From Patescibacteria group bacterium (lineage in GTDB: Bacteria > Patescibacteriota > Microgenomatia > 0-14-0-10-38-17), in the NCBI GenBank assembly GCA_050953885.1, contig JBMNNJ010000001.1, positions 143,437-207,436 of the forward strand: a stretch of 64,000 nt of DNA, given 5' to 3'. Each line of letters starts with the position of its first letter. Within the stretch, counting starts at the first letter, position 1. The translations under genes and the position numbers were made by a program. Shown piece after piece: positions 4,576 through 63,491 of the stretch. The notes below the pieces were generated by a model. The model saw nothing but the letters and a program-made list of their open reading frames with translations, made no database searches and was not told where the DNA came from.

Positions 4576-4680
4576 TGACGAAAGTCAGAATCTGGCCACA
4601 ATTACAAATGACTAATTACCAATTACCAATTACTTATTACTTATTACCTATTACTTATTATCAATTATGCTAAAATCTAA
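4557..4680. repeat. Single family-A hairpin (catcctgacgaaagtcagaatc) followed by a degenerate TTACYWA heptamer array
   Basis: Sequence identity to the H1 module. The heptamer array is the reverse complement of the GTAACT minisatellite seen at 24055. Confidence 0.6.
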
Positions 4681-18508: not shown

Positions 18509-19399
18509 ATGCCTAAAAAAGAAAAAATCGCCGCCAATGTGGTTACTTACAACAGAAAAGATCTTTTAAGAGAATGCCTTAATTCTCTTTTAGCGCAGAC
18601 AAGAAAACCGAATTCAATCATCATCGTTGATAATAATTCTACTGATGGAACAAAAGAAATGGTAGAAAAAGAGTTTTTAGATAATCCGATTTTTGATTAT
18701 GTGAGACTAAACGAGAACACCGGTAGCGCGGGAGGCCAATATACCGGCATCAAAAGAGCCTACGAAAAAGGTTTTGACTGGGTTTGGTGTATGGATGATG
18801 ATGCGACACCAAAAAAACAATGTTTAAAGAATTTGCTTGTTTCTAAAGAAAGCTGTAAAAAGGCAAAAGTATTAGTTCCAGTTAAGATTAGCATAAACGG
18901 TAATGAACAAGGGTCTCATGTGGGCGTTTTTTCTAGCCCCTTCTTGCGTATTAAGCCAGCAAATAGGTCTTCCAAATTAATTGAATTTAGTTCGTTTGTT
19001 GGTCCATTATTCAGTAAAGATGTTATACGAGAAATTGGTTTACCAAACAAAGACCTATTTATTTGGCATGATGATTATGAGTATTTTTTAAGAATAAAAA
19101 CAGCCGGATTTAAAACTTATCTTGTTGATAGTGCGGTTGTCATTCATAACGACGACTATGGGAGACAAAAGAAGAAGCAATTGGGTTGGAAGAATTATTA
19201 TGGTTGGAGAAATAAATTCTATATTAAAAAGAAATATTGTAAGCCTTTTTGGTTTTATTTGTATTTAGTGGTTTTTTTATTATGGCAAACTTCTGAAATA
19301 ATTTTTGTTTATCATCAACCAAAATATATAGAAACCTTGAGTAAAGCTCTTCTTAATGGCCTAAATGGTAAGCTGGGCTTTATTGGTTTTGATATTTAA
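18509..19399 (+). CDS. GT2 glycosyltransferase (candidate galactofuranosyltransferase, next to glf)
   Basis: ANVVTYNRKDLL...IIIVDNNSTDGT...WCMDDDA (DxD). Confidence 0.7.
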   Translation: MPKKEKIAANVVTYNRKDLLRECLNSLLAQTRKPNSIIIVDNNSTDGTKEMVEKEFLDNPIFDYVRLNENTGSAGGQYTGIKRAYEKGFDWVWCMDDDATPKKQCLKNLLVSKESCKKAKVLVPVKISINGNEQGSHVGVFSSPFLRIKPANRSSKLIEFSSFVGPLFSKDVIREIGLPNKDLFIWHDDYEYFLRIKTAGFKTYLVDSAVVIHNDDYGRQKKKQLGWKNYYGWRNKFYIKKKYCKPFWFYLYLVVFLLWQTSEIIFVYHQPKYIETLSKALLNGLNGKLGFIGFDI

Positions 19400-22388
19400 C
19401 TTCATAAAGGGTGAATTTATTGATAGTGGCAAAATTTCTGTAATTTTCTTTTATGGTTTGATTTATTTCGCTATTGTTCTGATCAAAGCTTTCTTCTAAA
19501 AAAGTCCATGAAGTTATTCTGCCAGATCCTACAACATACCTAGGTCTTTGTTCCTGAATGTTTACTGCTATTTCTTTTTTCGAAAAACAAAATTTGGCAT
19601 TATCACCCTCTTGGCAGAAGAAAGGAACCCCCGTATCCCTATAAACCCAGGGAGAAGTTATCTTTAATATATTAGTAGGTCTTACTTCCGCCGCCAGCGC
19701 CGTATCGGCAGTGAAAATTAAATCTGTTTCCGATGTTTTTTTGTTTACGAACTCAACAACCTCCTGTAAGTCTTGGTAGCTATAGACAACGGCATTATCT
19801 ACTTTTTTTGTTTGAGAAATAATATTGCTAAAAAGTAGACTTGCAAAAAGCAGATAAGCAAAAGGTTTCGCTGTTTTAGCTTTTGTCAGGAATGGTGACA
19901 AAAAAGATATTACAAGGGGAAATAAAAACGACATCATGGCGGGGCTATGATTAATATCATTTGGTGAGCTACCACCGCTTAACAACCGAACATAGTAGGC
20001 AAAATAAGAAAAATTAAGAATAATAGATAGAAAAATTATATTTTCGTCTTTGATTGCTTCATTCTTTTTTTTCAAGATTTCCCCCTTCAACAGGAGAAAA
20101 AGCGCTAATAAAAATGTTAACAGGGCAATAATATGACAATAAAAGTTATAGTAAACAAATTTTTCTGTACCGACAGATATTAGTGAAAGATAAAATAAAT
20201 AAATAAATAATAAAATTAATGACGATTTTTCTAATAATCTCTTTCTAGAAATTAAAAATATTAAAAAGAAAATTAATATAGAAAAATAGCCGTTTTCTAA
20301 TACTGTGTTTGGCCAAAAAGAGGATATGAAACTATTTTTAAATAATTGAGATGTCACTGCTATATAGAGAAAAAGGCCAACGGATGAAAACATCCAGCTT
20401 AGATAAACTATGCTTTTAATTTTAAATTTTTTTGAGATCGTTTTGACAACGGGGATTGTTACAAGTAAAACAAGAGAAATTTTTTGATATAGGATTACAT
20501 CGTTCCAAACATAGGTAATTAAGTTGTTAATAGGGGATCCTAACAGATTAAATAAAAGAATTATTAAACCTGAAGACAGAAAGTAAAAAATAAAATAAAG
20601 TAATATTTTCGAAAATCGTTCTTCGTCCTTAAGATATCTAACTGCTTCTATATAAAAAAGAGAAAGAAAAATTAACAATCCGCCCTTATAAGTAAATGTA
20701 CTTATTGCAACGATAATGGACGATATAAAAAATGCCGACGGAATATTTTTTTTAAGGTATAAGAAGAATAGTGAAACAGAAGTAATTGAAAATATTTGAA
20801 AAAATACTTTATCTAATCCAAGGTTAATGGGGTTAATTATTTTGGAAAAGATTGAAGATATCGCAAGAAATAAAAAAGCACTTTTTTTATCAGTTGCTTT
20901 TTTTATTATTAGATAATTTAGGGCTAAAAAAAGAATTTGGTAAAAGACGACTAGTGTTCTTTGATTCTTTATGGTTGTTTTTAAGAAAGAAAAAAATGGT
21001 CTTATCATAAGCAAAGAACCGGGTTCTCTAAACCAAAAGTCATCATATAAATTAAGTTCTTCTTTCATCATTCTAATTGCGTATAAGGAGTGTCCCTCGT
21101 CGGAACCAATATCGGCAGTGGTTATTTGAGAAGTTTGATTAGAAATAAAAGTGAGAAAAAGCAAGGCAATAATTATCCAATTGGGCTGTTTCGCCCCCTT
21201 TTTTAGAAAAAATGAAGAAATAAAGAATAAAATTATTAAAAATCCCTCTATGATTATTTTTCGATTTAAGATAGTTAAGTTCAGACACGGTATTATGATA
21301 AGTGCTGCTAATGAAAGATAAGGCATTATTTTTATAATTCTTGTTTTTGTTTTTGTATTCTTAGAAACATAAAAGTAGACAACAGTTTCTAGCGTTAAGA
21401 AAAGAGTAGCAAGACTAGAGAAAGAGAGGCCGTTGTTTATAGACTTACTTACTTTTTTTAGAATATTTTCCCAAATCGATCCGATATTATTTTTCAGCTC
21501 CCCCTTATTGTAAACATACCTTGAATAAAGATAAGGTTGGTTGTTTTTATCAACCGAGGCAAAAACATAAAGGGCGGGGGTTTCTTCGTCGGGTTGCTTT
21601 TTGCCGGCTAATTCTACCAGATAGGTTTTGCTTTCGGATTCTTCAATTATAGGAAAACCAAAGGGGTAAAGATGGCTAGGAGCGGCTTGGTCAAAATAAT
21701 AGGTGTTTTCATAAAACCAGTTCTCGGCACCTTTTTCCTTAATGCGGAAAATGATTTCGGCCGGTTCATAATAGGCGATTTCTTCAAGGGGTTCTTCTTC
21801 GGCCAGATCGTCTTGGCCGATAGGTTGCTCTTTTTGGGTTTCCTGGTCGATTATTTCTTCCTCTATTTCCTCTTCCGGCTTTATCTCTATAATCTCCCCT
21901 TCTTCATTAAAGCCCAAAGCCTTTTCTTGAACCGAGAGTTTAACTCCCATCGTGCCCAAATTATTGGAATCGGCCGTAAATTCTTGGGAAATGAGCGTGT
22001 TTTCCACCAAAGGAACTTCTTTGGCGGCTTTAAAGCTTTTCGGGTGGCTTTCGTAAACCAGTGGCGAGCCGTACTGGAAAATAGCGTAGCCCACCAAAAA
22101 AGTTAGGATTAAGAGGAGATTGACGCCGGTGAGAAGGAGAAATTTCTTGGCGCTTTTAGAATGGGGGAAAAGATAAACTAAAAAAGCGACAATCTGACGC
22201 CAATTAATTAAAGCAACAAAAATAACCAGCCAAAAAGCAGCGCGGTTAAGTTGCGGTTGGCTAATACCTAAAGAAAACGAAAAAAAAGAGGCCAGGCGGG
22301 TAAAAAGCGTTAAAAGAAGTAAAGAGAAGGCAAGAGCATTAAAAAAGCGGCGCAGTTTTGGGAAAAAAGAAGGCTTTTTTAAGTCCAT
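19380..22388 (-). CDS. Very large (about 1000 aa) polytopic membrane protein with ArnT/PMT-like GT-C core and N-terminal acidic extension
   Basis: More than 15 TM segments. DEGHSLYAIRMM loop motif like the other GT-C proteins here. Glu-rich spacer EEEIEEEIIDQETQKEQ in the N-terminal 300 aa. Confidence 0.45.
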   Translation of the reverse strand: MDLKKPSFFPKLRRFFNALAFSLLLLTLFTRLASFFSFSLGISQPQLNRAAFWLVIFVALINWRQIVAFLVYLFPHSKSAKKFLLLTGVNLLLILTFLVGYAIFQYGSPLVYESHPKSFKAAKEVPLVENTLISQEFTADSNNLGTMGVKLSVQEKALGFNEEGEIIEIKPEEEIEEEIIDQETQKEQPIGQDDLAEEEPLEEIAYYEPAEIIFRIKEKGAENWFYENTYYFDQAAPSHLYPFGFPIIEESESKTYLVELAGKKQPDEETPALYVFASVDKNNQPYLYSRYVYNKGELKNNIGSIWENILKKVSKSINNGLSFSSLATLFLTLETVVYFYVSKNTKTKTRIIKIMPYLSLAALIIIPCLNLTILNRKIIIEGFLIILFFISSFFLKKGAKQPNWIIIALLFLTFISNQTSQITTADIGSDEGHSLYAIRMMKEELNLYDDFWFREPGSLLMIRPFFSFLKTTIKNQRTLVVFYQILFLALNYLIIKKATDKKSAFLFLAISSIFSKIINPINLGLDKVFFQIFSITSVSLFFLYLKKNIPSAFFISSIIVAISTFTYKGGLLIFLSLFYIEAVRYLKDEERFSKILLYFIFYFLSSGLIILLFNLLGSPINNLITYVWNDVILYQKISLVLLVTIPVVKTISKKFKIKSIVYLSWMFSSVGLFLYIAVTSQLFKNSFISSFWPNTVLENGYFSILIFFLIFLISRKRLLEKSSLILLFIYLFYLSLISVGTEKFVYYNFYCHIIALLTFLLALFLLLKGEILKKKNEAIKDENIIFLSIILNFSYFAYYVRLLSGGSSPNDINHSPAMMSFLFPLVISFLSPFLTKAKTAKPFAYLLFASLLFSNIISQTKKVDNAVVYSYQDLQEVVEFVNKKTSETDLIFTADTALAAEVRPTNILKITSPWVYRDTGVPFFCQEGDNAKFCFSKKEIAVNIQEQRPRYVVGSGRITSWTFLEESFDQNNSEINQTIKENYRNFATINKFTLYEVKYQNQ

Positions 22389-22454
22389 CGCTAGTTGTAA
22401 AAAGATTTGGTTTTTATTATAGCGTATTTATTAACAAGTAATACGTAACTCGTA

Positions 22455-22545
22455 ACTGGTAACTAACGCAGATTCTGACTTTCGTCAGAATGACAGAAAA
22501 GTGCCAGAATGACAATTACGATTATCGTCAAAATGACGGAGCAAG
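22455..22545. repeat. Family-A hairpin repeat block abutting the 3' end of the paralog gene
   Basis: aacgcagattctgactttcgtcagaatgac... The gene stop lies at the repeat boundary. Confidence 0.8.
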
Positions 22546-23151
22546 CTCTCCCGGATCACGGATGGTGAAGGGAAGGCGGTCACTTTCCCGGCCATCATAT
22601 TTTTTAACATACAAGTCGCCTTTAAAAAAACGAGGCGGGTGGGGCTGAACGGCAACAATTTTTTCTTCCCCCCATTCTTTGATTTGAAATTCAAGGTCGT
22701 CAACAAAAACTTTTCCCGGTTGCCAAGCGGGCCCAAAATTTTTGCCTTCAATAATAATTTCCATCCCCACCATTGACCAATTGATCTCTTTTGGCTCACC
22801 CACCGTGGCCCATGAAGAAAGAATTCGGTAAATTTTTGGCTCTTCCTGTAGACGCTGGTAAAAATCAGTATAGACACGGTTAACCACCAAACCCACCAAC
22901 AAGGCGGTGAAAAAAACCGGCCAAAATTTAGCACCAACTTCCCTTGCCCGACGGGAAAAATAGTTAACCGAAAAGACTGCCAAAAAAACCGCCAGAAGCA
23001 AAAAGGTTTTTTGAGACGAGGAAATATGCTTTAAAACCAAAAATTTTTCCGTTAAAAGATATTCGGCGGGAATAATTAAAAGAAAGTAGAAAATAATGGT
23101 TTGGGCAACCACAAGCAGGTTAGGGAGAAGAAATTTTTTAAAAAAAGCCAT
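22528..23151 (-). CDS. Small membrane protein (3 N-terminal TM helices plus C-terminal domain), tandem paralog 1
   Basis: 207 aa, about 90% identical to the 23409..24032 product. Confidence 0.55.
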   Translation of the reverse strand: MAFFKKFLLPNLLVVAQTIIFYFLLIIPAEYLLTEKFLVLKHISSSQKTFLLLAVFLAVFSVNYFSRRAREVGAKFWPVFFTALLVGLVVNRVYTDFYQRLQEEPKIYRILSSWATVGEPKEINWSMVGMEIIIEGKNFGPAWQPGKVFVDDLEFQIKEWGEEKIVAVQPHPPRFFKGDLYVKKYDGRESDRLPFTIRDPGELAPSF

Positions 23152-23225
23152 TGATAAGAAAAGTATAACACTAATCGGGGAACGCGTAACTGGTAACTGG
23201 TAATACGTAATACGTAACTCGTAAC

Positions 23226-23440
23226 TGGTAACTAACGCAGATTCTGACTTTCGTCAGAATGACGGTTAGAGGAAGCACCAGGATGACGACGGTCGCGCCG
23301 TCATTCCGGACTTGATCCGGAATCTGTGCTATTGCCAGAAAACGCAGATTCTGACTTTCGTCAGAATGACGGCTAGGGGAAGCGTCAGAATGACGGTTAC
23401 GATTAGCGTCAGAATGACGGAGCAAGCTCTCCCGGATCAC
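23226..23440. repeat. Family-A composite repeat block between the tandem paralogs
   Basis: Contains the H1, H2 and gtcagaatgacg modules. Confidence 0.85.
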
Positions 23441-24032
23441 GGATGGTGAAAGGGAGGCGGCTACTTTCCCGACCATTATATTTTTGAACATACAAGCCGC
23501 CTTTAAAAAAATGGGGCGGGTGGGGCTGAATAACAATAATTTTCTCTTCTCCCCATTCTTTGATTTGAAATTCAAGGCCGTCAACAAAAACTTTTCCCGG
23601 TTGCCAAGCGGGCCCAAAATTTTTACCGTCAATAATAATTTCCATTCCCACCATTGACCAATCAATCTCTTTTGGCTCACCCACCGTGGCCCATGAAGAA
23701 AGAATTCGGTAAATTTTTGGCTCTTCCTGTAGACGCTGGTAAAAATCAGTATAGACACGGTTAACCACCAAACCCACCAACAAGGCGGTGAAAAAAACCG
23801 GCCAAAATTTGGCGCCAATTTTCCTTACCCGGCGGGAAAAATAGTTAACCAAAAAGACCGTTAAAAAAACCGCCAAAAGCAAAAAAGTTTTTTGAGACGA
23901 GGGAATATGCTTTAAAACCAAAAATTTTTCCGTTAAAAGATATTCGGCAGGAATAATTAAAAGAAAGTAGAAAATAATGGTTTGGGCAACCACAAGCAGG
24001 TTGGGGAGAAGAAATTTTTTAAAAGAAAACAT
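23409..24032 (-). CDS. Small membrane protein, tandem paralog 2
   Basis: 207 aa. Same architecture and same repeat-abutted 3' end as paralog 1. Confidence 0.55.
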   Translation of the reverse strand: MFSFKKFLLPNLLVVAQTIIFYFLLIIPAEYLLTEKFLVLKHIPSSQKTFLLLAVFLTVFLVNYFSRRVRKIGAKFWPVFFTALLVGLVVNRVYTDFYQRLQEEPKIYRILSSWATVGEPKEIDWSMVGMEIIIDGKNFGPAWQPGKVFVDGLEFQIKEWGEEKIIVIQPHPPHFFKGGLYVQKYNGRESSRLPFTIRDPGELAPSF

Positions 24033-24054
24033 GACAAGAAAAGTATAACACTAA

Positions 24055-24215
24055 TCGGGGAATACGTAACTAGTAACTGGTAATACATAACTAGTAACTG
24101 GTAATACGTAACTAGTAACTCGTAATACGTAACTAGTAACTGGTAATTCGTAACTCGTAACTGGTAATTCGTAACTAGTAACTGGTAATACGTAACTCGT
24201 AACTGGTAACTAACG
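24055..24215. repeat. GTAACT-type minisatellite (7-bp units NGTAAYW with 21-bp higher-order period, about 8 periods)
   Basis: gtaactagtaactggtaatac repeated. Shorter arrays at 22430-22455, 23170-23225, 4617-4672 and 50590-50690. Confidence 0.85.
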
Positions 24216-24535
24216 CAGATTCTGACTTTCGTCAGAATGACGGCTAGGGGAAGCGTCAGAATGACAATTACGATTAGCGTCATTCTGAACTTGATTCAGA
24301 ATCTGTTTTAAAAAAAACTAAAACGCAGATTCTGACTTTCGTCAGAATGACAGAAAAGCGGCAGGATGACAACAGTCGTGCCGTCATTCCGGACTTGATC
24401 CGGAATCTGTATTATTGCCAGAAAACGCAGATTCTGGCTTTCGCCAGAATGACAAAAAAACGTCAGAATGACAAAGAAGCATCAGAATGACGGTTAGGGG
24501 AAGCATCAGGATAACGTCCTTATTATCAAGAAGCC
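24215..24535. repeat. Family-A composite repeat array
   Basis: H1, H5 (cattctgaacttgattcagaatc) and H2 modules. Confidence 0.85.
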
Positions 24536-24539
24536 AATT

Positions 24540-26465: not shown

Positions 26466-26650
26466 AGCAAAGTTAGATCCTGACTTTCGTCAGGATGACA
26501 CTAACCGCCATTCTGAACTTGATTCAGAATCAGTCTTAAAAAAACTAAAACGCAGATTCTGACTTTCGTCAGAATGACAGTTAGGGGAAGCGTCAGAATG
26601 ACAGAAAAACGTCAGAATGACAATTACGATTAGCGTCATCCTGATAAGAA
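26466..26650. repeat. Family-A composite repeat block
   Basis: H1/H5 modules. Nearly identical to 24280-24360 and 29385-29460. Confidence 0.85.
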
Positions 26651-28439: not shown

Positions 28440-28880
28440 GCATCAAGCTTTAAGGCCGATCCTGACTTTCGTCAGAATGACGGTTAGGGGAAGCGTCAGG
28501 ATGACGACAGCCGTGCCGTCATTCCGGACTTGTCCCGCCATAGCGGGATCCGCCTCAGGCAGAATCCGGAATTTATGTTATTGTAAGAAAACGCAGATCC
28601 TGACTTTCGTCAGGATGACGGTTAGGGGAAGCGTCAGGATGACGATAACCGTGCCGTCATTCCGGACTTGATCCGGAATCTGTGCTATTACCAGAAAACG
28701 CAGATTCTGACTTTCGTCAGAATGACAAAAAAAACGTCAGAATGACGATAACCGTGCCGTCATTCCGGACTTGATCCGGAATCTGTGTTATTACCAGAAA
28801 ACGCAGATCCTGACTTTCGTCAGGATGACAAAAAAAACGTTAGGATGACGATTAGTGAAAGCGTCAGGATGACGGTTACG
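28440..28880. repeat. About 4 tandem units (about 110 bp each) of the family-A composite hairpin repeat
   Basis: Each unit is gatcctgactttcgtcaggatgac-ggttaggggaagc-gtcaggatgacg-...-gtcattccggacttgatccggaatctgtgttattaccagaaaacgca. Unit 1 carries a nested ccgccatagcgggatccgcctcaggc insertion. Confidence 0.9.
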
Positions 28881-29178
28881 GAAATAATTCTGGCCACAAG
28901 TCCTTAAACTCAGGGTTACTTTTTCTAATTAATTCCAACTTCCATTCTCTTCGCCAACTTTTTAGCTGTTTTTCTCTCTTTATCGCTTCTTCTATGTTGT
29001 CAAAAACTTCAAAATAAAGAAGCTTGTTAAGATGATACTTTTTAGTAAAGCCTTCAACTAACTCCTCTTTATGTTGGCTAATCCGATGATAAAAATCGGC
29101 AGTTACTCCAATATAAAGGGTGGGGCGATCGTTACCCATAATATAAACAACAGCTTGCTTTTCCATTTTTAATTTCAA
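28876..29178 (-). CDS. GIY-YIG nuclease family protein (UPF0213/YhbQ-like)
   Basis: VYIMGNDRPTLYIGVTADFYHRISQHK (GIY...YIG). About 95 aa. Confidence 0.8.
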   Translation of the reverse strand: MKLKMEKQAVVYIMGNDRPTLYIGVTADFYHRISQHKEELVEGFTKKYHLNKLLYFEVFDNIEEAIKREKQLKSWRREWKLELIRKSNPEFKDLWPELFP

Positions 29179-29179
29179 A

Positions 29180-29500
29180 AACTAAAACGCAGATCCTGAC
29201 TTTCGTCAGGATGACGGCTACGGGAAGCGTCAGAATGACAATAACCGTGCCGTCATTCCGGACTTGATCCGCCATAGCGGGATCCGCCTCAGGCGGAATC
29301 CGGAATCTGTGTTATTATCAGAAAACGCAGATTATGACTTTCGTCAGAATGACAAAAAAGCGTCAGGATGATACTGACCGTCATCCTGAACTTGATTCAG
29401 GATCTGTTTTAAAAAAACTAAAACGCAGATCCTGACTTTCGTCAGGATGACGGTTAGGGGAAGCGCCAGAATGACAGAAAAGCGTCAGGGTAACGCCTCC
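29180..29500. repeat. Family-A composite repeat array
   Basis: H1, H2 with nested H4, and H5 modules. Confidence 0.9.
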
Positions 29501-32867: not shown

Positions 32868-33010
32868 ACAAATTCAAATCTCAAATCTCAAAACTCAAAA
32901 CTACAACTCAAAACTTAAATCTAAAAAAAACAACTTTAAGCTTTAAAAAGTTTTAACATTTACCATGTAGTTTTGAGTTTTAACATTTGAGTTTTAACAT
33001 TTTAGCTTGC
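32868..33010. repeat. Family-B MITE-like element (acaactcaaaac...ttttaacatttaccatgtagttttgagtttt)
   Basis: Four copies in the window: 32868-33010, 40590-40760, 50856-51015 and 54660-54745. Imperfect terminal inverted repeats caaaactcaaaac/gttttgagtttt. Confidence 0.75.
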
Positions 33011-33071
33011 ATTTTAAGTTTATTTTCTTGTCCATTCGTTTCTCATTCGTGTTAATTCGTGTCTTTTAGCA

Positions 33072-34247
33072 ATGAAGCAATCTAAACCCATTTTATCAAT
33101 CATCATCGTCTCTTATAACACCAAGGAACTGTTGAAAGAATGCCTTGATTCCGTGGCTAAATCATTAGCCAGCGCTAATTTTAAAAGCAACCAAGAAAAG
33201 ATCCTGAATCAAGTTCAGAATGACGCTAATCGTAACCGTCATCCTAACTCCTCTCGCCGTCATCCTGACGATCCGCCAGCTGGCGGACAGGATCTGCCCT
33301 TGTCATTAACACAGATTCCGGATCAAGTCTGGAATGACAGTTTCCAAGTTCGTTACCCTGACTCTTCTCACCGTCATCCTGATGATCCGCCAGTTGGCGG
33401 ACAGGATCTACCCTTGGCCGAAATCATCGTTGTTGACAATAATTCCCGCGACGATTCGGTAGAAATGCTTGAAAATTTAAAATTGAAACTTGAAAATTCA
33501 ATGAAAATTGAAAATTTAAAATTGAAAATTATTATTAATAACGATAATCTTGGCTTTGCCAAGGCTAATAATCAGGGGATAAAAATAGCCGAAGGAAAAT
33601 ATGTCCTGCTTTTAAACTCCGATACTAAAATTGTTGAAGATAATTTTTTCCCAAAAATTATTAGTTTTTTGGAGAAAAATTCTGCGGTGGGAATTTTAGG
33701 ACCAAAACTAATTTGGGAAGACGGTAAAATTCAACCCTCGGGTGGTTATTTTCCTACTTTAGGTCGCCTCTTTGCCTGGGCTTTTTTCTTGGACGATTTA
33801 CCGGGCCTTTCAAAAATAATTAAAGCCTACCATCCCCACCCTAAGGACTGTCAAAAACCTCAAAGGCAAGACTGGGTTACCGGCGCCTGTTTCTGGGTGA
33901 AAAAGGAAGTTTTTGATAAAATAGGAATGCTTGACGAGGATTTTTTTATGTATGTGGAAGAACTGGAATTTTGTTTTCGCGCTAAAAAAGCGGGGTTTGA
34001 GGTGATTTATTATCCTCAGGCGAAACTTATTCATTACGGCGGGAAAAGCGGCACCGCTTTTAATACTGTTATAGGTGAATTTAAAGGCTTAAAACTTTTT
34101 TACCAGAAACACCAGCCGGCCTGGCAAAAACCGTTCCTAAATTTCCTCCTTAAGGCGGCCGCTTTTAACCGTTTTTTTTTCTTAGGAATTTTGGGGGGAA
34201 ATAAAGAAAAAAAAGAAATTTATCGAAAAGTTTTGGAAAGCAAGTAG
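33072..34247 (+). CDS. GT2 glycosyltransferase carrying an in-frame insertion of about 75 aa derived from family-A hairpin repeats
   Basis: N-terminus ILSIIIVSYNTKELL and EIIVVDNNSRDDS are split by NRNRHPNSSRRHPDDPPAGGQDLPLSLTQIPDQVWNDSFQVRYPDSSHRHPDDPPVGGQDLP. The DNA at 33196-33418 consists of the H5, H1+H3 and H2 repeat modules. Confidence 0.8.
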   Translation: MKQSKPILSIIIVSYNTKELLKECLDSVAKSLASANFKSNQEKILNQVQNDANRNRHPNSSRRHPDDPPAGGQDLPLSLTQIPDQVWNDSFQVRYPDSSHRHPDDPPVGGQDLPLAEIIVVDNNSRDDSVEMLENLKLKLENSMKIENLKLKIIINNDNLGFAKANNQGIKIAEGKYVLLLNSDTKIVEDNFFPKIISFLEKNSAVGILGPKLIWEDGKIQPSGGYFPTLGRLFAWAFFLDDLPGLSKIIKAYHPHPKDCQKPQRQDWVTGACFWVKKEVFDKIGMLDEDFFMYVEELEFCFRAKKAGFEVIYYPQAKLIHYGGKSGTAFNTVIGEFKGLKLFYQKHQPAWQKPFLNFLLKAAAFNRFFFLGILGGNKEKKEIYRKVLESK

Positions 34248-38910: not shown

Positions 38911-39317
38911 GGAAATAAGTGCGTAGAAAGAAAAACATTAGCAAAGCACACAGGATTAAACAGGATTTTTACAGGATAAAACAGAATAAATCTTGATGAG
39001 GTGATGAGTATATTAGCCTTATCGGTATAAATATATTTTACTGCTATATCAGTAAAAATTTAGAAGAAAAATAATTAACCAAAAACTTAATAAAGCTAAA
39101 AAGGAATTAAAACAGGGGCGATCGCCCCTTAAATAATTCCTTACCTGATAAAGATAAAGTTAGGCCTGTAATTTTTTCTATAGCAATTTAGTAGTTAACA
39201 ATTTATTCCGCCTGTGGCGAAACAATTTAACCATACTTATTTTATTGCGGCGCGGATTAAAAGTGCGCGCCAACCATTCGCTCATTCGTGTTAATTCGTG
39301 TCTTTTAACCATTAACA

Positions 39318-40514
39318 ATGAAACAATCGCCTGTTTTACTTTCCATCATCATCGTCTCTTATAATACCCGGGAGCTTTTGGAAAAATGCCTTGATTCCGT
39401 GATCAAATCATTAGCCGGCTCTAATCTTAAAAGCAACCAAGAAAAGATCCTGAATCAAGTTCAGGATGAGGCTAATCGCAACCGTCATTCTGACTCCTCT
39501 GGTCGTCATCCTGACCCCGCCAAGGGTGGGGCTAACCGTCATCCTGACGAAAGTCAGGATCTCTCCTTGTCATTAACACAGATTCCGGATCAAGTCCGGA
39601 ATGACAGTTTCCAAGTTCGTTACCCTGACTCTTCTCACCGTCATCCTGACGATCCGCCAGCTGGCGGACAGGATCTGCCCGCCGAAATCATCGTTGTTGA
39701 TAATAATTCCCGCGACGATTCGGTAGAAATGCTTGAAAATTTAAAATTGAAACTTAAAAATTCAATGAAAATTGAAAATTTAAAATTGAAAATTATTGTT
39801 AATAACGATAACACTGGCTTTGCCAAGGCTAATAATCAGGGGATAAAAATAGCCGAAGGAAAATATGTCCTCTTTTTGAATCCGGATACGATTGTTTTAC
39901 CCGAAACACTTCCTTTTATGCTTGAATTTATGAAAAAAAACCCCGCGGTAGGCGTGGCCACCTGTCGGGTAGAGCTTGTTGATGGAAAGCTGGACGAGGC
40001 TTGCCATCGGGGTTTTCCCACTCCCTGGAATGCCTTTTGCCATTTTTCGGGTTTGGAAAAACTTTTCCCCCATTCCCGACTTTTTGCCGGTTATTATTTA
40101 GGATATTTGGATCTTAACACCACCCACGAAATCGATAGTTGCGTCGGCGCGTTTATGTTAGTCCCTCGCCTGGTGGGCGAAAAAATCGGCTGGTGGGATG
40201 AAGATTATTTTTGGTATGGCGAGGACATTGATTTTTGTTATCGAGTGAAAAAGGCGGGTTTTAAGGTGATGTTTGTACCAAAAGTAAAAATCATCCATTA
40301 TAAAGGCGCCTCATCGGGAATTAAAAAAACCAAAAGCAAAGCCGACTTTAAAACACAAGAGAAGGCCATGCTTGCTTCAACCCAGGCGATGCGGATTTTT
40401 TACCAAAAACATTACCGGGGAAAATATCCTAAGCCCGTTGAGAAACTCGTTTTTTGGGGAATTAGTTTGCTTGAAAAAGCAAGGGTGAGAAAAATAAAAA
40501 AACAAAATGGCTAA
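39318..40514 (+). CDS. GT2 glycosyltransferase, paralog of 33072..34247, with in-frame repeat-derived insertion (about 80 aa)
   Basis: LSIIIVSYNTRELL ... NRNRHSDSSGRHPDPAKGGANRHPDESQDLSLSLTQIPDQVRNDSFQVRYPDSSHRHPDDPPAGGQDLP ... EIIVVDNNSRDDS. The DNA at 39436-39678 is hairpin repeat modules. Confidence 0.8.
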   Translation: MKQSPVLLSIIIVSYNTRELLEKCLDSVIKSLAGSNLKSNQEKILNQVQDEANRNRHSDSSGRHPDPAKGGANRHPDESQDLSLSLTQIPDQVRNDSFQVRYPDSSHRHPDDPPAGGQDLPAEIIVVDNNSRDDSVEMLENLKLKLKNSMKIENLKLKIIVNNDNTGFAKANNQGIKIAEGKYVLFLNPDTIVLPETLPFMLEFMKKNPAVGVATCRVELVDGKLDEACHRGFPTPWNAFCHFSGLEKLFPHSRLFAGYYLGYLDLNTTHEIDSCVGAFMLVPRLVGEKIGWWDEDYFWYGEDIDFCYRVKKAGFKVMFVPKVKIIHYKGASSGIKKTKSKADFKTQEKAMLASTQAMRIFYQKHYRGKYPKPVEKLVFWGISLLEKARVRKIKKQNG

Positions 40515-40759
40515 ATTGCGCAAAAATCTCAAAACGCAAATATCAAAAATAAAAACCTAATTCAAAATTCAAAAATAATAAATAAACTCAAATGTTAAAT
40601 CGCAAAACTCAAAACTACAACTCAAAACTAAAATCTAAAAAACAACTTTAAGCTTTAAAAAGTTTTAACATTTGCCATGTAGACCTGCCTTGCCGGCAGG
40701 CAGGTTTGCCATTTGCGTTTTGAGTTTTAAGCTATGGTTTTGGTCTTTGAGCTTGGTTT

Positions 40760-40960
40760 TGCTCCGCCAGCTGGCGGATTCATCAGAATGACGGCCACGA
40801 TTAGCATCATTCTGAACTTGATTCAGAATCGTTATTAATCTCTGAAGAACGCAGATCCTGACTTTCGTCAGAGCCTGTCCTGAATTTAATTCAGGAATGA
40901 CAGCTACGGGGATGATCCTGTCCGCCAGCTGGCGGATTAAATTTTAACTTTTGACTTTTT
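40760..40960. repeat. Family-A repeat block (H3 tccgccagctggcgga, H5, H1, H6 cctgaatttaattcagg)
   Basis: Seen directly. Confidence 0.85.
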
Positions 40961-42425: not shown

Positions 42426-42545
42426 AGAATCCGTAGGGGCTGGATTTCCCGAGCCGTTTGATTGCGGGCGGGAAAACCCCGTCCCTACCATTCGCGTCCA
42501 TTCGTTTTTTATTCGCGTTAATTCGCGTATTTTAGCAATTTAACA

Positions 42546-43729: not shown

Positions 43730-43930
43730 GGTTTTGTCCGCCAGCTGGCGGATCGTCAGAATGACGGCTACAATTATTGTCATTCTGAACTTGTCCCGCC
43801 ATAACGGGATCCGCATCGGGCGGGATCCAGAATCAAAAACAGATTCTGACTTTCGTCAGAATGACAATGACTGTCATTTATCCGTCGGTGGGCAAATTCG
43901 TCAGAATGACAGTTACGTTCAGCCCGCAGC
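43730..43930. repeat. Family-A repeat block (H3, H5 with nested H4, H1)
   Basis: ORF 43704..43943 is a translation of this repeat. Confidence 0.85.
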
Positions 43931-43965
43931 AATGAAACAATGAAACAATGAAACAATGAAACAAT
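43931..43965 (+). repeat. 4.5 tandem copies of the 8-bp unit CAATGAAA abutting the manC start codon
   Basis: caatgaaacaatgaaacaatgaaacaatgaaacaatgctc. Each unit encodes an ATG-AAA-CAA-TGA mini-ORF. The last copy (tga to tgc) opens the ManC frame. Confidence 0.85.
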
Positions 43966-45038
43966 GCTCTTACATCTTAATCATCTGCGGCGGGGGAGGG
44001 ACAAGGCTTTGGCCATTGTCACGCCCAAAAAGCCCGAAGCAATTCTTGCCTCTTTTTGGAGAAAAAAATCTTCTTGCCCAAACGGTCGAGCGCGCTCAAA
44101 AAGTTGTCCCCTCCCAAAGAATTTTCTTTGTCGCCGGCCGGGAATATGCCGGCGATATTCTTAAAAGCGCTCCCCAGGTGCCTCCCCAAAACCTGATTAT
44201 CGAGCCTGATAAAAAACACACCGCCGCCGCCATCATCTTAGGCAACGCTAAAATTGCCCAAAAAGATCCCGAAGCCATTATTACCAATCTCTGGTCAGAC
44301 CAATTAGTAAAAAATAACCAAAATTTTCAAAAAGATGTTAAGAAAGCAATGGAAGCTTCCCAACAAAAAAAGGCGCTCGTGGCCATTGGCATTAAGCCAA
44401 CTTTTCCCCACACCGGCTTTGGCTATATTGAAACCGGTCGGGAAATTGCCCCCCAAATTTTTGAAGTAAAACAATTTCGAGAAAAGCCCGACGAGAAAAC
44501 CGCCGCCCGCTTTTTGGCGGCCGGCAATTTTTATTGGAATTTAGGCACCTATACCTGGCCAGCAGGGGTGTTTTTTGCCGAGCTTAAAAAAACCCACCCG
44601 CCGCTTTTTGCCTCCTTGAAAAAAATCCAAAAGGCCATAGGAGGAGAAAACGAGTGGGAAGAAATTAAAAAAATTTATCAGGAAATTACCCCTATTTCGA
44701 TTGATGAAGCGGTGGCGGAAAAAACCAAAAACATGCTTATGCTTTCGGCTACTTTTGATTGGTATGATGTGGGTGACTGGCAGGCGGTTTGGGAAAAAAG
44801 CCCCAAGGATAAAAACGGCAATGTGATTTTACCAACCAACAACGGGAAAACTGTTCTTTGGCAGGCTAAAAACAGCCTCTTTTTGTCAACCAAAAAACTA
44901 ATCGCCGCCTGCGGCGTCGAAAACTTAATTGTGGTGGAAACTAAAGACGCCATTTTAATTTGCCCTAAGAATAAAAGTCAGGAAGTTAAAGATCTTTTGG
45001 AAGAAGTTAAAAAACAAGATCCTCGTTATGCCGAATAA
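43956..45038 (+). CDS. manC: Mannose-1-phosphate guanylyltransferase-like sugar nucleotidyltransferase
   Basis: ILIICGGGGTRLWPLSRPKSPKQFLPL nucleotidyltransferase signature. 360 aa. Confidence 0.8.
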   Translation: MKQCSYILIICGGGGTRLWPLSRPKSPKQFLPLFGEKNLLAQTVERAQKVVPSQRIFFVAGREYAGDILKSAPQVPPQNLIIEPDKKHTAAAIILGNAKIAQKDPEAIITNLWSDQLVKNNQNFQKDVKKAMEASQQKKALVAIGIKPTFPHTGFGYIETGREIAPQIFEVKQFREKPDEKTAARFLAAGNFYWNLGTYTWPAGVFFAELKKTHPPLFASLKKIQKAIGGENEWEEIKKIYQEITPISIDEAVAEKTKNMLMLSATFDWYDVGDWQAVWEKSPKDKNGNVILPTNNGKTVLWQAKNSLFLSTKKLIAACGVENLIVVETKDAILICPKNKSQEVKDLLEEVKKQDPRYAE

Positions 45039-50553: not shown

Positions 50554-50694
50554 AGCCACACAGCTAAGAAGAACTTCTTAAAAAAAGTTAGTAATTCGTA
50601 ACTGGTAATCAGTAACTCGTAATTAAAAAAAATAATTCCGTCTTTGATAATTACGAGTTACGCATTACGGATTACTGATTTTTAATTTTACTCC

Positions 50695-50850: not shown

Positions 50851-51096
50851 AAACGACAACTCAAAACTCAAATCTAAAAAAAACAAATTTAAGTTTTAAA
50901 AAGTTTTAACATTTGCCATGTAGGCCTGCCTTGCCGGCAGGCAGGTTTGCCATTTGCGTTTTGAGATTTGAGTTTATGGTTTTGGTCTTTAAGTTTGACT
51001 TTGCCCTTTGGTCTTTTACTTTTGAGTTATCGCAAAACAACCCCTTTTTGACTAAGTCAGCCCCATCTCTTTTGGTGAAATAAACTTAATAAAAAT

Positions 51097-54621: not shown

Positions 54622-54783
54622 AAATAAACTAAATTCAAAGTTTAAAGTTACAAGTCAAATGGCAAAACTACAACTTAAAACTCAAATCTGGAAAAACAAT
54701 ATTTTAAAAAGATTTAAGATTTAACATGTAGTTTTGAGTTTTGTCCGCCAGCTGGCGGATTGACTTTTGACTTTTTCATTATA

Positions 54784-63174: not shown

Positions 63175-63491
63175 AGATAAAAATTTTATTGCTTCATTGT
63201 TATATTGTTTCATTGTTAAAGAAGCACACAGAATTAAACAGAATAAATCCCGTTAAATCCTGCGCCAATCATTCGTTTATTCGTGTTTATTCGTTTCCTA
63301 CTCGTGTTTCCGGGCGGACTAAAGTCCGCTATTCCAAAATAAAATGGAGTAGCGCAATTTATTGCGCGCCAATTATTCGCTCATTCGCGTCTATTCGTTT
63401 TAATTCGTGTTAATTTGCGTATTTTTAACAATGTAACAATGAAGCAATGAAACAATATCTTTCTTACCCCCTTGTGCTACAATAAATACTA

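Follow-up and report, generated by a model that had tools for sequence, protein, structure and literature searches.

The TAAA tract upstream of nadA is a case of a simple sequence repeat (SSR) acting as a contingency locus, and tandem heptamers have been known in bacteria since the short tandemly repeated repetitive (STRR) sequences of heterocystous cyanobacteria were, reportedly, described by Mazel et al. in 1990. This report concerns a 64-kb stretch of DNA from a Patescibacteria group bacterium (contig JBMNNJ010000001.1; hereafter ‘the window’), in which the gene for a 207-aa membrane protein is present as two adjacent copies, each preceded by an array of heptamers of the form TTACNNR. Heptamers are the commonest unit of the 5–11-nt class of long simple sequence repeats (LSSRs), possibly through the way in which polymerase slippage is handled (Mrazek et al. 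2007, as summarised in PMC4679880). Direct repeats of one heptamer, TAACTGA, occur in marine Beggiatoaceae, some Cyanobacteria and Bacteroidetes (MacGregor 2015, PMC4679880); in Microcystis and some Bacteroidetes TAACTGA is mixed with other heptamers in long arrays, and strains differ by indels in 7-nt increments (PMC4679880). In Haemophilus influenzae, the (ATCTTTC)n tract of hmw1A and hmw2A lies in a 5′ untranslated region hairpin that is processed by RNase III and is needed for phase variation (PMC12721329), and AGAT and poly-G tracts of the Moraxella genes uspA2 and uspA1, respectively, are among the cases cited in PMC4679880. Both phenomena found in the window are of known kinds: a repeat-mediated tandem duplication and heptanucleotide intergenic arrays. 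What is new is their occurrence in an uncultivated lineage of the Candidate Phyla Radiation (CPR), for which the searchable literature yielded no report of such repeats; nothing relevant came from searches on phase variation through SSRs in Patescibacteria or on the repeats of Shapirobacteria.

Our preferred reading, to which we give a probability of about 0.55, is that the arrays are heptanucleotide LSSRs acting as a labile spacer, which changes over evolutionary time and does not provide a fast reversible switch. An array of this kind would separate the promoter, by a distance that is labile in evolution, from the terminator-like hairpins of a palindromic repeat, here called family-A, that lies upstream. 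The elements of the locus, all on the minus strand, are as follows.

22435..22462, minus strand: array 0, 4 units, upstream of the TATAAT (22416–22421) of a gene for a 1002-aa protein (in-register reading)
22463..22538, minus strand: family-A segment 3′ of copy 1, which holds the stop and last codons of copy 1 and ends in CGTTAG beside array 0 (families D3 and D6)
22528..23151, minus strand: copy 1 of the 207-aa gene (open reading frame list, alignment to copy 2, AlphaFold (AF2) model, Foldseek)
23152..23182, minus strand: putative promoter and leader of copy 1, TTCCCCGATTAGTGTTATACTTTTCTTATCA (sequence and conservation in orthologues)
23183..23231, minus strand: array 1, 7 units of TTACNNR, 49 bp, reading GTAA.. 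on the plus strand (Tandem Repeats Finder (TRF), in-register reading)
23232..23419, minus strand: family-A block between the copies, with the copy 2 stop, a terminator-like hairpin (23367..23348) and the duplication boundary
23409..24032, minus strand: copy 2 of the 207-aa gene (open reading frame list, alignment to copy 1)
24033..24062, minus strand: putative promoter and leader of copy 2, TTCCCCGATTAGTGTTATACTTTTCTTGTC (sequence and conservation)
24063..24209, minus strand: array 2, 21 units of TTACNNR, 147 bp (TRF, in-register reading)
24210..24539, minus strand: family-A block upstream of array 2, with terminator-like hairpins at 24450..24431 and 24348..24329

Read on the coding strand, the order of the repeated unit is family-A hairpin GTCATTCTGACGAAAGTCAGAATCTG, CGTTAG, heptamer array, leader, ATG and gene, and then family-A sub-repeats. 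A reading of the same DNA made from the sequence alone (the sequence-only reading) had placed arrays of different length before the two copies, with a 21-bp period before copy 2; all of this held, with slight corrections to coordinates and unit counts, and the short array that it had noted before the 1002-aa gene is array 0. The three arrays open identically after the family-A hairpin, with CGTTAG followed by TTACCAG TTACGAG TTACGTA. Array 2 consists of seven copies of a 21-bp higher-order unit, TTACCAG TTACTAG TTACGTA (TRF: period 21, 7.1 copies, 92% matches, score 256), while at period 7 TRF finds 74–82% matches for the arrays. The abundance of the motif exceeds chance by a wide margin: the two-unit pattern GTAACTNGTAACT, allowing at most one mismatch, has 22 matches in the window, where shuffled sequence would give 0.11. 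The units are nevertheless imperfect. No array holds more than two identical adjacent heptamers, and the longest perfect lag-7 run is 8 nt in array 2 and 11 nt in array 1 (the longest lag-21 run is 20 nt).

The number of units was compared at the orthologous promoter in related loci, recognised by its conserved leader, with the following result.

L002: 1 unit
L025: 2–3 units
L001: 3 units (degenerate)
L009: 5 units
Window, copy 1: 7 units
Window, copy 2: 21 units

Two further sites gave the same picture: at the next gene, 4 units in the window correspond to 2 at the orthologous site of L001, and an array of unrelated sequence, AAAGTCA, downstream of the GT4 gene has 7–8 units in the window and about 2 in L001. 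As judged from these alignments, array length clearly varies over evolutionary time. The -10 element and its spacing to the ATG are constant whatever the unit number, so the array would act as a variable spacer; unit number alters neither the -10, the leader nor the reading frame. In three relatives (L004, L024 and L026) the promoter region is replaced by other short repeats, ATTCGYG and CAATNNNN. This second promoter-proximal style, in which ATTCGYG motifs are followed by CAATNNNN octamers up to the ATG, is also seen before several glycosyltransferase paralogues (33040–33070, 39280–39310, 42480–42545 and 63270–63460 in the window; 5905–5995 in L004), and at the 207-aa orthologue of those three relatives it stands in the place of the TTAC-array promoter.

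The closest known kind is the heptanucleotide LSSR, as exemplified by the cyanobacterial STRRs. Three features of that class were looked for and found: 7-nt arrays beyond chance expectation; arrays that are many, mainly intergenic and of several sequences; and unit-step changes, here at three orthologous sites. The resemblance extends to tandem 7-nt units in a few to tens of copies, mostly intergenic and of several sequences per genome, and to copy-number differences between close relatives in steps of 7 nt. Unlike the described arrays, those of the window belong to a CPR genome, are degenerate at positions 5–6 around a TTAC core and are interleaved with family-A, and array 2 has a 21-bp higher-order structure.

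Likeness to the TAACTGA repeats is striking. In both cases heptamers lie near the starts of genes without a Shine-Dalgarno motif and are accompanied by further heptamers, and the plus-strand unit of the window, TAACTNG, is one base off TAACTGA. On that strand the array units read TAACTGG, TAACTAG, TAACTCG, TAATACG and TAATTCG. TAACTGA itself occurs three times in the window, always on the minus strand and never within an array, and no direct repeat of it was found there. In contrast to the BOGUAY pattern of TAACTGA repeats, the gene and TAACT are here on opposite strands, and about 30 nt separate the end of the array from the ATG; the putative -10 falls within this gap, and the array does not overlap a ribosome-binding region. 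Unit sequence and orientation together rule out membership of the TAACTGA repeats.

The sequence-only reading had treated the arrays as contingency loci, and this is partly supported. On this rival account, frequent slippage within populations would alter the expression of an exposed envelope protein, either as an on/off switch or as an expression rheostat. Five different lengths at one orthologous promoter, and a threefold difference between the paralogues, are what such a locus should show; the product is a membrane protein with an Ig-like domain predicted to be extracellular; heptamer SSRs before an adhesin gene are an established mechanism of phase variation (PMC12721329); and the 21-bp higher-order unit, at 92% identity, could still permit slippage. 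The arrays of the window share with the hmw and uspA loci a tract 5′ of an envelope-protein gene and a copy number that differs between lineages. However, the tracts at those loci are perfect and transcribed, whereas the units here are imperfect and probably untranscribed, and a run of identical units long enough for frequent slippage, as expected of a contingency locus, is absent where at most two neighbours are identical. The tract also lies outside both the open reading frame and the spacer between the putative -35 and -10; it abuts the -35 position, from which unit number may still act through the upstream context. When folded as RNA, the array showed no structure (z = +1.2), on which ground a hairpin mechanism of the hmw kind was rejected.

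Comparison of assemblies points the same way. Three assemblies, each from a different sample (L018, L019 and L023), agree at every base of array 2, and arrays 1 and 0 are identical in two same-strain assemblies, consensus sequences being compared in each case; all three arrays are thus the same wherever a second or third same-strain assembly covers them. A strain that diverges by 2% is represented by Logan contig L021, which ends short of the array. Moreover, similar arrays adjoin cytoplasmic and housekeeping genes and occur within coding sequence; they are not peculiar to the 207-aa gene. What stands of the contingency proposal is therefore that 5′ arrays of variable length, among paralogues and among relatives, precede a membrane-protein gene; against it are the imperfect units, their place upstream of the -10, the identity of same-strain assemblies and the genome-wide spread of such arrays. 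There is no sign so far of a rapid on/off switch at the 207-aa gene, and we consider a true contingency or rheostat locus unlikely. For annotation, the lesson is that a repeat tract near a surface-protein gene is not, here, in itself evidence of phase variation.

The labile-spacer reading depends on where the promoter lies. The common leader that had been noticed before each copy is confirmed as TTCCCCGATTAGTGTTATACTTTTCTT(A/G)TC(A), immediately ahead of the ATG. An extended -10 element, TGTTATACT, is found at 23162–23170 in copy 1 (10 nt before the ATG) and at 24042–24050 in copy 2 (9 nt before the ATG); it is unchanged in the orthologues of L001, L009 and L025, and nearly so in L002, while the DNA just upstream differs in each. 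More distant orthologues have TATAAT or TATAGT 6–10 nt before the ATG. The window has 31 operon-first genes, taken as those preceded by 70 nt or more of non-coding DNA; six have a strong -10-like hexamer 6–10 nt before the start, five of them with TGN, and only two have a Shine-Dalgarno-like motif. Besides the 207-aa gene, five genes of the window carry such a hexamer 6–9 nt ahead of the start. Hexamers so near the starts, and the scarcity of Shine-Dalgarno motifs, are signs of leaderless or near-leaderless transcription. For each copy the extended -10 TGTTATACT is, to judge from its conservation, the most likely promoter, which would give an mRNA that is leaderless or nearly so. The array, which ends 30–31 nt before the ATG and lies neither in the open reading frame nor between the putative -35 and -10, would then probably sit at or upstream of the -35 position, outside the transcript. 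In the stretch that separates the array from the upstream gene, the scan for sigma-70 promoters and terminators that is described below marked family-A hairpins as weakly terminator-like. A scan of the genome collection with a 25-nt leader sequence gave no match.

Several observations weigh against the labile-spacer reading. A generic sigma-70 consensus scan did not call TGTTATACT as a promoter, because the match to a -35 is weak. Promoters differ in how far the final TTAC lies from the -10, and for this reason the proposal that the final unit supplies a correctly spaced -35 was not upheld either. The three samples in which array 2 is identical bear neighbouring Joint Genome Institute (JGI) identifiers and are probably one project and essentially clonal, which limits the power of that comparison, and both the promoter position and the apparent lack of heterogeneity derive from consensus sequences. 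Finally, the TTAC core is well preserved: positions 1–4 carry 1.4–1.9 bits over 13 arrays (75 units, 29 of them distinct), a figure to be read with the caveat that the arrays were partly chosen for containing TTAC. Positions 5–6 of TTACNNR, at about 0.1–0.5 bits, vary almost freely, and a purine occupies position 7. Neutral decay of a microsatellite should erode every position to the same extent, so that a near-invariant core beside free positions suggests that TTAC may be under some constraint. A second caveat is that substitutions accumulated since the 21-bp amplification show no significant avoidance of the core, in which one of four variable sites, by hand count, falls.

Such constraint would be explained if the TTACNNR units were reiterated sites at which a sequence-specific protein binds (for instance a regulator, a nucleoid protein or sigma region 4 of RNA polymerase), with unit number setting occupancy. 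The information in the core is retained throughout the 13 arrays, which come from different loci and genomes. Relative to the downstream gene both orientations are used, and inverted pairs occur (50591–50680 in the window; 6625–6700 in L002), which fits recognition of double-stranded DNA; the higher-order period of 21 bp corresponds to two turns of the helix. No candidate for the binding protein was found, however, and the spacing of 7 bp is unlike that of known response-regulator direct repeats, which are spaced 10–11 bp apart. The variable distance between last unit and -10 counts against this account too, as does the ascertainment bias in the comparison between arrays. In addition, unrelated heptamers (AAAGTCA, AAAACTC and AAGATTT) behave alike, which would make one factor per motif unlikely. 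On balance we regard the binding-site explanation as doubtful. A wider form of it would hold that TTACNNR and the other 7–8-bp arrays, which cluster densely at promoters and gene ends in this clade, constitute a cis-regulatory system of Shapirobacteria, sites for a DNA-binding factor whose copy number is tuned by slippage; this seems to us improbable. If it were true, regulator-poor bacteria would adjust the expression of envelope and glycosylation genes by repeat dosage. The idea that the arrays are clusters of GTNAC methylation sites was dropped, as only units preceded by G, about half of them, qualify.

A quite different possibility is that the heptamer array is merely the variable tail of a mobile family-A element and has no tie to the promoter. 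At all three arrays an identical junction, GTCAGAATCTGCGTTAG, leads into TTACCAG TTACGAG TTACGTA, and family-A also abuts TTAC-type arrays at 4599 and in L025. Identical junctions are, however, accounted for by the duplication itself; the promoters of L001 and L009 have a TTAC array without adjacent family-A; and most of the family-A cores of the window are without a heptamer array. That the arrays are family-A tails is therefore decidedly unlikely. The family-A core, CTGACTTTCGTCAG, is present in 19 copies in the 64 kb, accompanied by GTCATTCYGRC sub-repeats, by a second hairpin, ATTCCGGA-N5-TCCGGAAT, and by nested GC-rich insertions. Its sites include 126–290, 26480–26640, 28462–28884 and 29196–29480, and at 28564–28852 it forms a tandem array of its own (103-bp unit, 2.8 copies).

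Family-A bears more directly on the duplication, which is real on the evidence of relatives, synonymous divergence (dS), flanking repeats and junctions recovered from a second sample. The two minus-strand reading frames described from the sequence, said to be about 90% identical, are present as reported and share 188 of 207 amino acids (91%) and 583 of 624 nucleotides; homology between the two units reaches beyond the genes. Syntenic relatives, identified by a methyltransferase gene upstream and either a large membrane protein or toxin-antitoxin genes downstream, have one copy in all cases examined. dS between the window copies is 0.16, compared with 0.37–0.84 to the orthologues; by this measure the window copies are each other's closest relatives and the duplication is lineage-specific. 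The ratio of non-synonymous to synonymous divergence (dN/dS) between them is 0.28, indicating that both copies have been kept under purifying selection. As the sequence-only reading had stated, a family-A repeat junction follows the 3′ end of each copy. Family-A segments bound the duplicated unit, with 23341–23411 being 97% identical to 24212–24282 (family D5), and these direct copies fit unequal recombination between them. The locus thus shows adjacent direct copies, homologous bounding repeats and a single copy in relatives, as is characteristic of repeat-mediated tandem duplication.

Could the duplication, the long array or both have been created by assembly? The exact copy 2 protein is also encoded on contigs of two JGI samples. 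In one of these, 3300060679, one contig leads from the methyltransferase gene into copy 1, with array 2, copy 2 and array 1 in between, and another begins in copy 1 and runs into the 1002-aa gene. Both contigs match the window exactly, save for paralogue-like mismatches in their last 50–110 nt. That they break within copy 1, with such mismatches at their ends, does show that the repeat confuses assemblers. Against an artefact, the 41 nucleotide differences are scattered across the copies and dN/dS is 0.28, the 3′ flanks of copies 1 and 2 are unlike each other, the junction from copy 2 through array 1 to copy 1 is identical in two samples, and array 2 is identical in three. With both junctions independently assembled in 3300060679, an artefact is very unlikely, to the point of being negligible. 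The differences between the paralogues are unevenly distributed: about 140 nt in the middle of the gene (codons ~75–122) show none, while flanking 60-nt bins show up to nine. This difference-free stretch may reflect gene conversion or strong constraint.

Under the labile-spacer reading, the locus could have arisen in the following steps. Unequal recombination between direct family-A copies would have duplicated a unit of about 880 bp comprising family-A, array, promoter and 207-aa gene. A TTAC motif at the upstream edge of the promoter would have been amplified in 7-bp steps, and before copy 2 a three-unit block of 21 bp would have been amplified again. The arrays presumably grow and shrink by replication slippage or unequal exchange. 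Any effect on expression would be at most quantitative, and the paralogues may differ in expression level. The data show the anatomy of the locus, its duplication, the differences in array length among relatives, the identity of same-strain assemblies and the genome-wide class of heptamers, whereas we infer from DNA sequence where the promoter lies, that slippage drives the changes and what they may do to expression. With its natural series of 1, 2–3, 3, 5, 7 and 21 units at one promoter, which is likewise new, and its TTAC core, this would be a convenient test locus for two questions: whether promoter activity responds to heptamer arrays, which have gone unexplained since the cyanobacterial STRRs, and whether small-genome bacteria with few regulators tune expression by repeat dosage.

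The arrays of the 207-aa genes belong to a class that is widespread in the genome, as seen in a census of the 64-kb window and the related loci. TRF reports periods of 7, 14 or 21 for 17 of the 40 arrays in the window, and a period of 7 for 4 of the 9 in L002; relatives at or below 58% protein identity have almost no period-7 arrays. (A metagenome scan with the protein gave only two loci; a profile scan gave seven, and those among them at or below 58% identity are without arrays.) Intergenic DNA of the window has a lag-7 identity of 0.309, coding DNA one of 0.263, and 12 of the 14 period-7 stretches found in a lag-7 scan are intergenic. TTAC-type arrays, in both orientations, adjoin GT2, PMT_2, Wzy-like and class II aminoacyl-tRNA-synthetase genes. 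Further array heptamers are AAAGTCA, AAAACTC, AAGATTT and TTGAAAA, the last of which forms an array within the coding sequence of two GT2 paralogues (33468–33532 and 39763–39796), in frame as 21-bp periods and encoding ..LENLKLKLENSMKIENLKLK... The inverted pair at 50591–50680 is a GTAAY array followed by a partner of ATTAC units, downstream of a gene, and the same pair in L002 is downstream of the 207-aa orthologue; the arms are complementary only at their GTAA/TTAC cores.

One tract in the window is of a different quality. A perfect octamer, CAATGAAA, is repeated 4.6 times at 43930–43966 (TRF, 100% matches; 29-nt perfect lag-8 run) and spans the start codon of the NTP-transferase gene (43956..45038), with an ATG in every unit. 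Being perfect and at a translation start, it is a better candidate for slippage than the TTACNNR arrays.

The 207-aa protein was described from the sequence as three transmembrane (TM) helices with a conserved C-terminal domain, and structure prediction agrees. The AlphaFold model, built with 31 homologues (mean pLDDT 89.3, pTM 0.74), has long N-terminal helices, equivalent to about three TM segments, followed by a β-sandwich at residues ~105–198. Foldseek matched the sandwich to Ig-like domains of cyclodextrin glycosyltransferase (CGTase; best E = 8e-07), and also to the IPT/TIG domain of EBF1 and to surface glycan-binding proteins of Bacteroides. A Pfam scan of both copies gave nothing above threshold, with no PF01833 match at E ≤ 1; four homologues (P0022–24 and P0029) have precomputed PF01833 assignments, and one homologue is named ‘IPT/TIG domain-containing protein’. 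As modelled, the protein is one of three TM helices and an IPT/TIG-type Ig-like fold. Its C-terminal ~95 residues share with the PF01833 family the IPT/TIG-type β-sandwich and a conserved GKNFG motif, although the window proteins themselves fall below every Pfam threshold and the architecture of three TM helices with a single IPT domain was met only in CPR-type relatives. The TM2–TM3 loop (SRRAREVGAK) is positively charged, from which the positive-inside rule predicts that the IPT domain is extracellular, as it probably is.

The conserved C-terminal end that had been remarked upon is indeed common to both copies; its nature is another matter. The final codons and stop (..APSF*) of both copies fall within the family-A sub-repeat CCGTCATTYTGA, and orthologues without that repeat end in ..GELQ* or similar, from which it follows that the APSF C-terminus is repeat-derived. 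An exact-protein look-up returned no record for copy 1, while copy 2, the methyltransferase and the 1002-aa protein did match.

Homologues of the 207-aa protein are from assemblies named as Candidatus Shapirobacteria, Microgenomates and other Patescibacteria, and the genome of the window is that of a Candidatus Shapirobacteria (CPR/Patescibacteria). Where the source of a relative is evident, it is a digester-type metagenome: a biogas fermenter in one case and, as the isolate name suggests, a sludge digester in another. JGI contig Ga0591955_0000299 is identical to the window. Its sample, 3300062814, holds two related Shapirobacteria populations, represented by L001 (Ga0591955_0000271) and by the window contig, whose 207-aa proteins are 89% identical; L001 has a single copy and a 3-unit array where the window contig has the duplication with 7 and 21 units.

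The gene cluster around the duplicated gene contains GT2, GT4, PMT_2, Wzy-like and NTP-transferase genes, so that the 207-aa genes are surrounded by an envelope-glycan cluster. Compared with Rfam, the whole window gave only a tRNA. One neighbour remains to be listed.

19380..22388, minus strand: gene for a 1002-aa multi-pass membrane protein, downstream of copy 1

The ‘GT-C’ label previously given to this protein is unconfirmed, there being no Pfam match at E ≤ 1. Its N-terminal 345 aa are 71% identical to a 416-aa protein in the same position in L001; no other part matches, and there is no similarity to the neighbouring PMT_2 protein of L001.

A separate palindromic element, with arms that are inverted heptamer arrays (AAAACTC... 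/ ...GAGTTTT), recurs at 32869–33002, 40524–40761, 50858–50996 and 54660–54745. It has a 16-nt perfect stem at 32885/32970 and, in two copies, a nested GC-rich palindrome, CCTGCCTTGCCGGCAGGCAGG; the element may be like a miniature inverted-repeat transposable element (MITE) or may be a bidirectional terminator.

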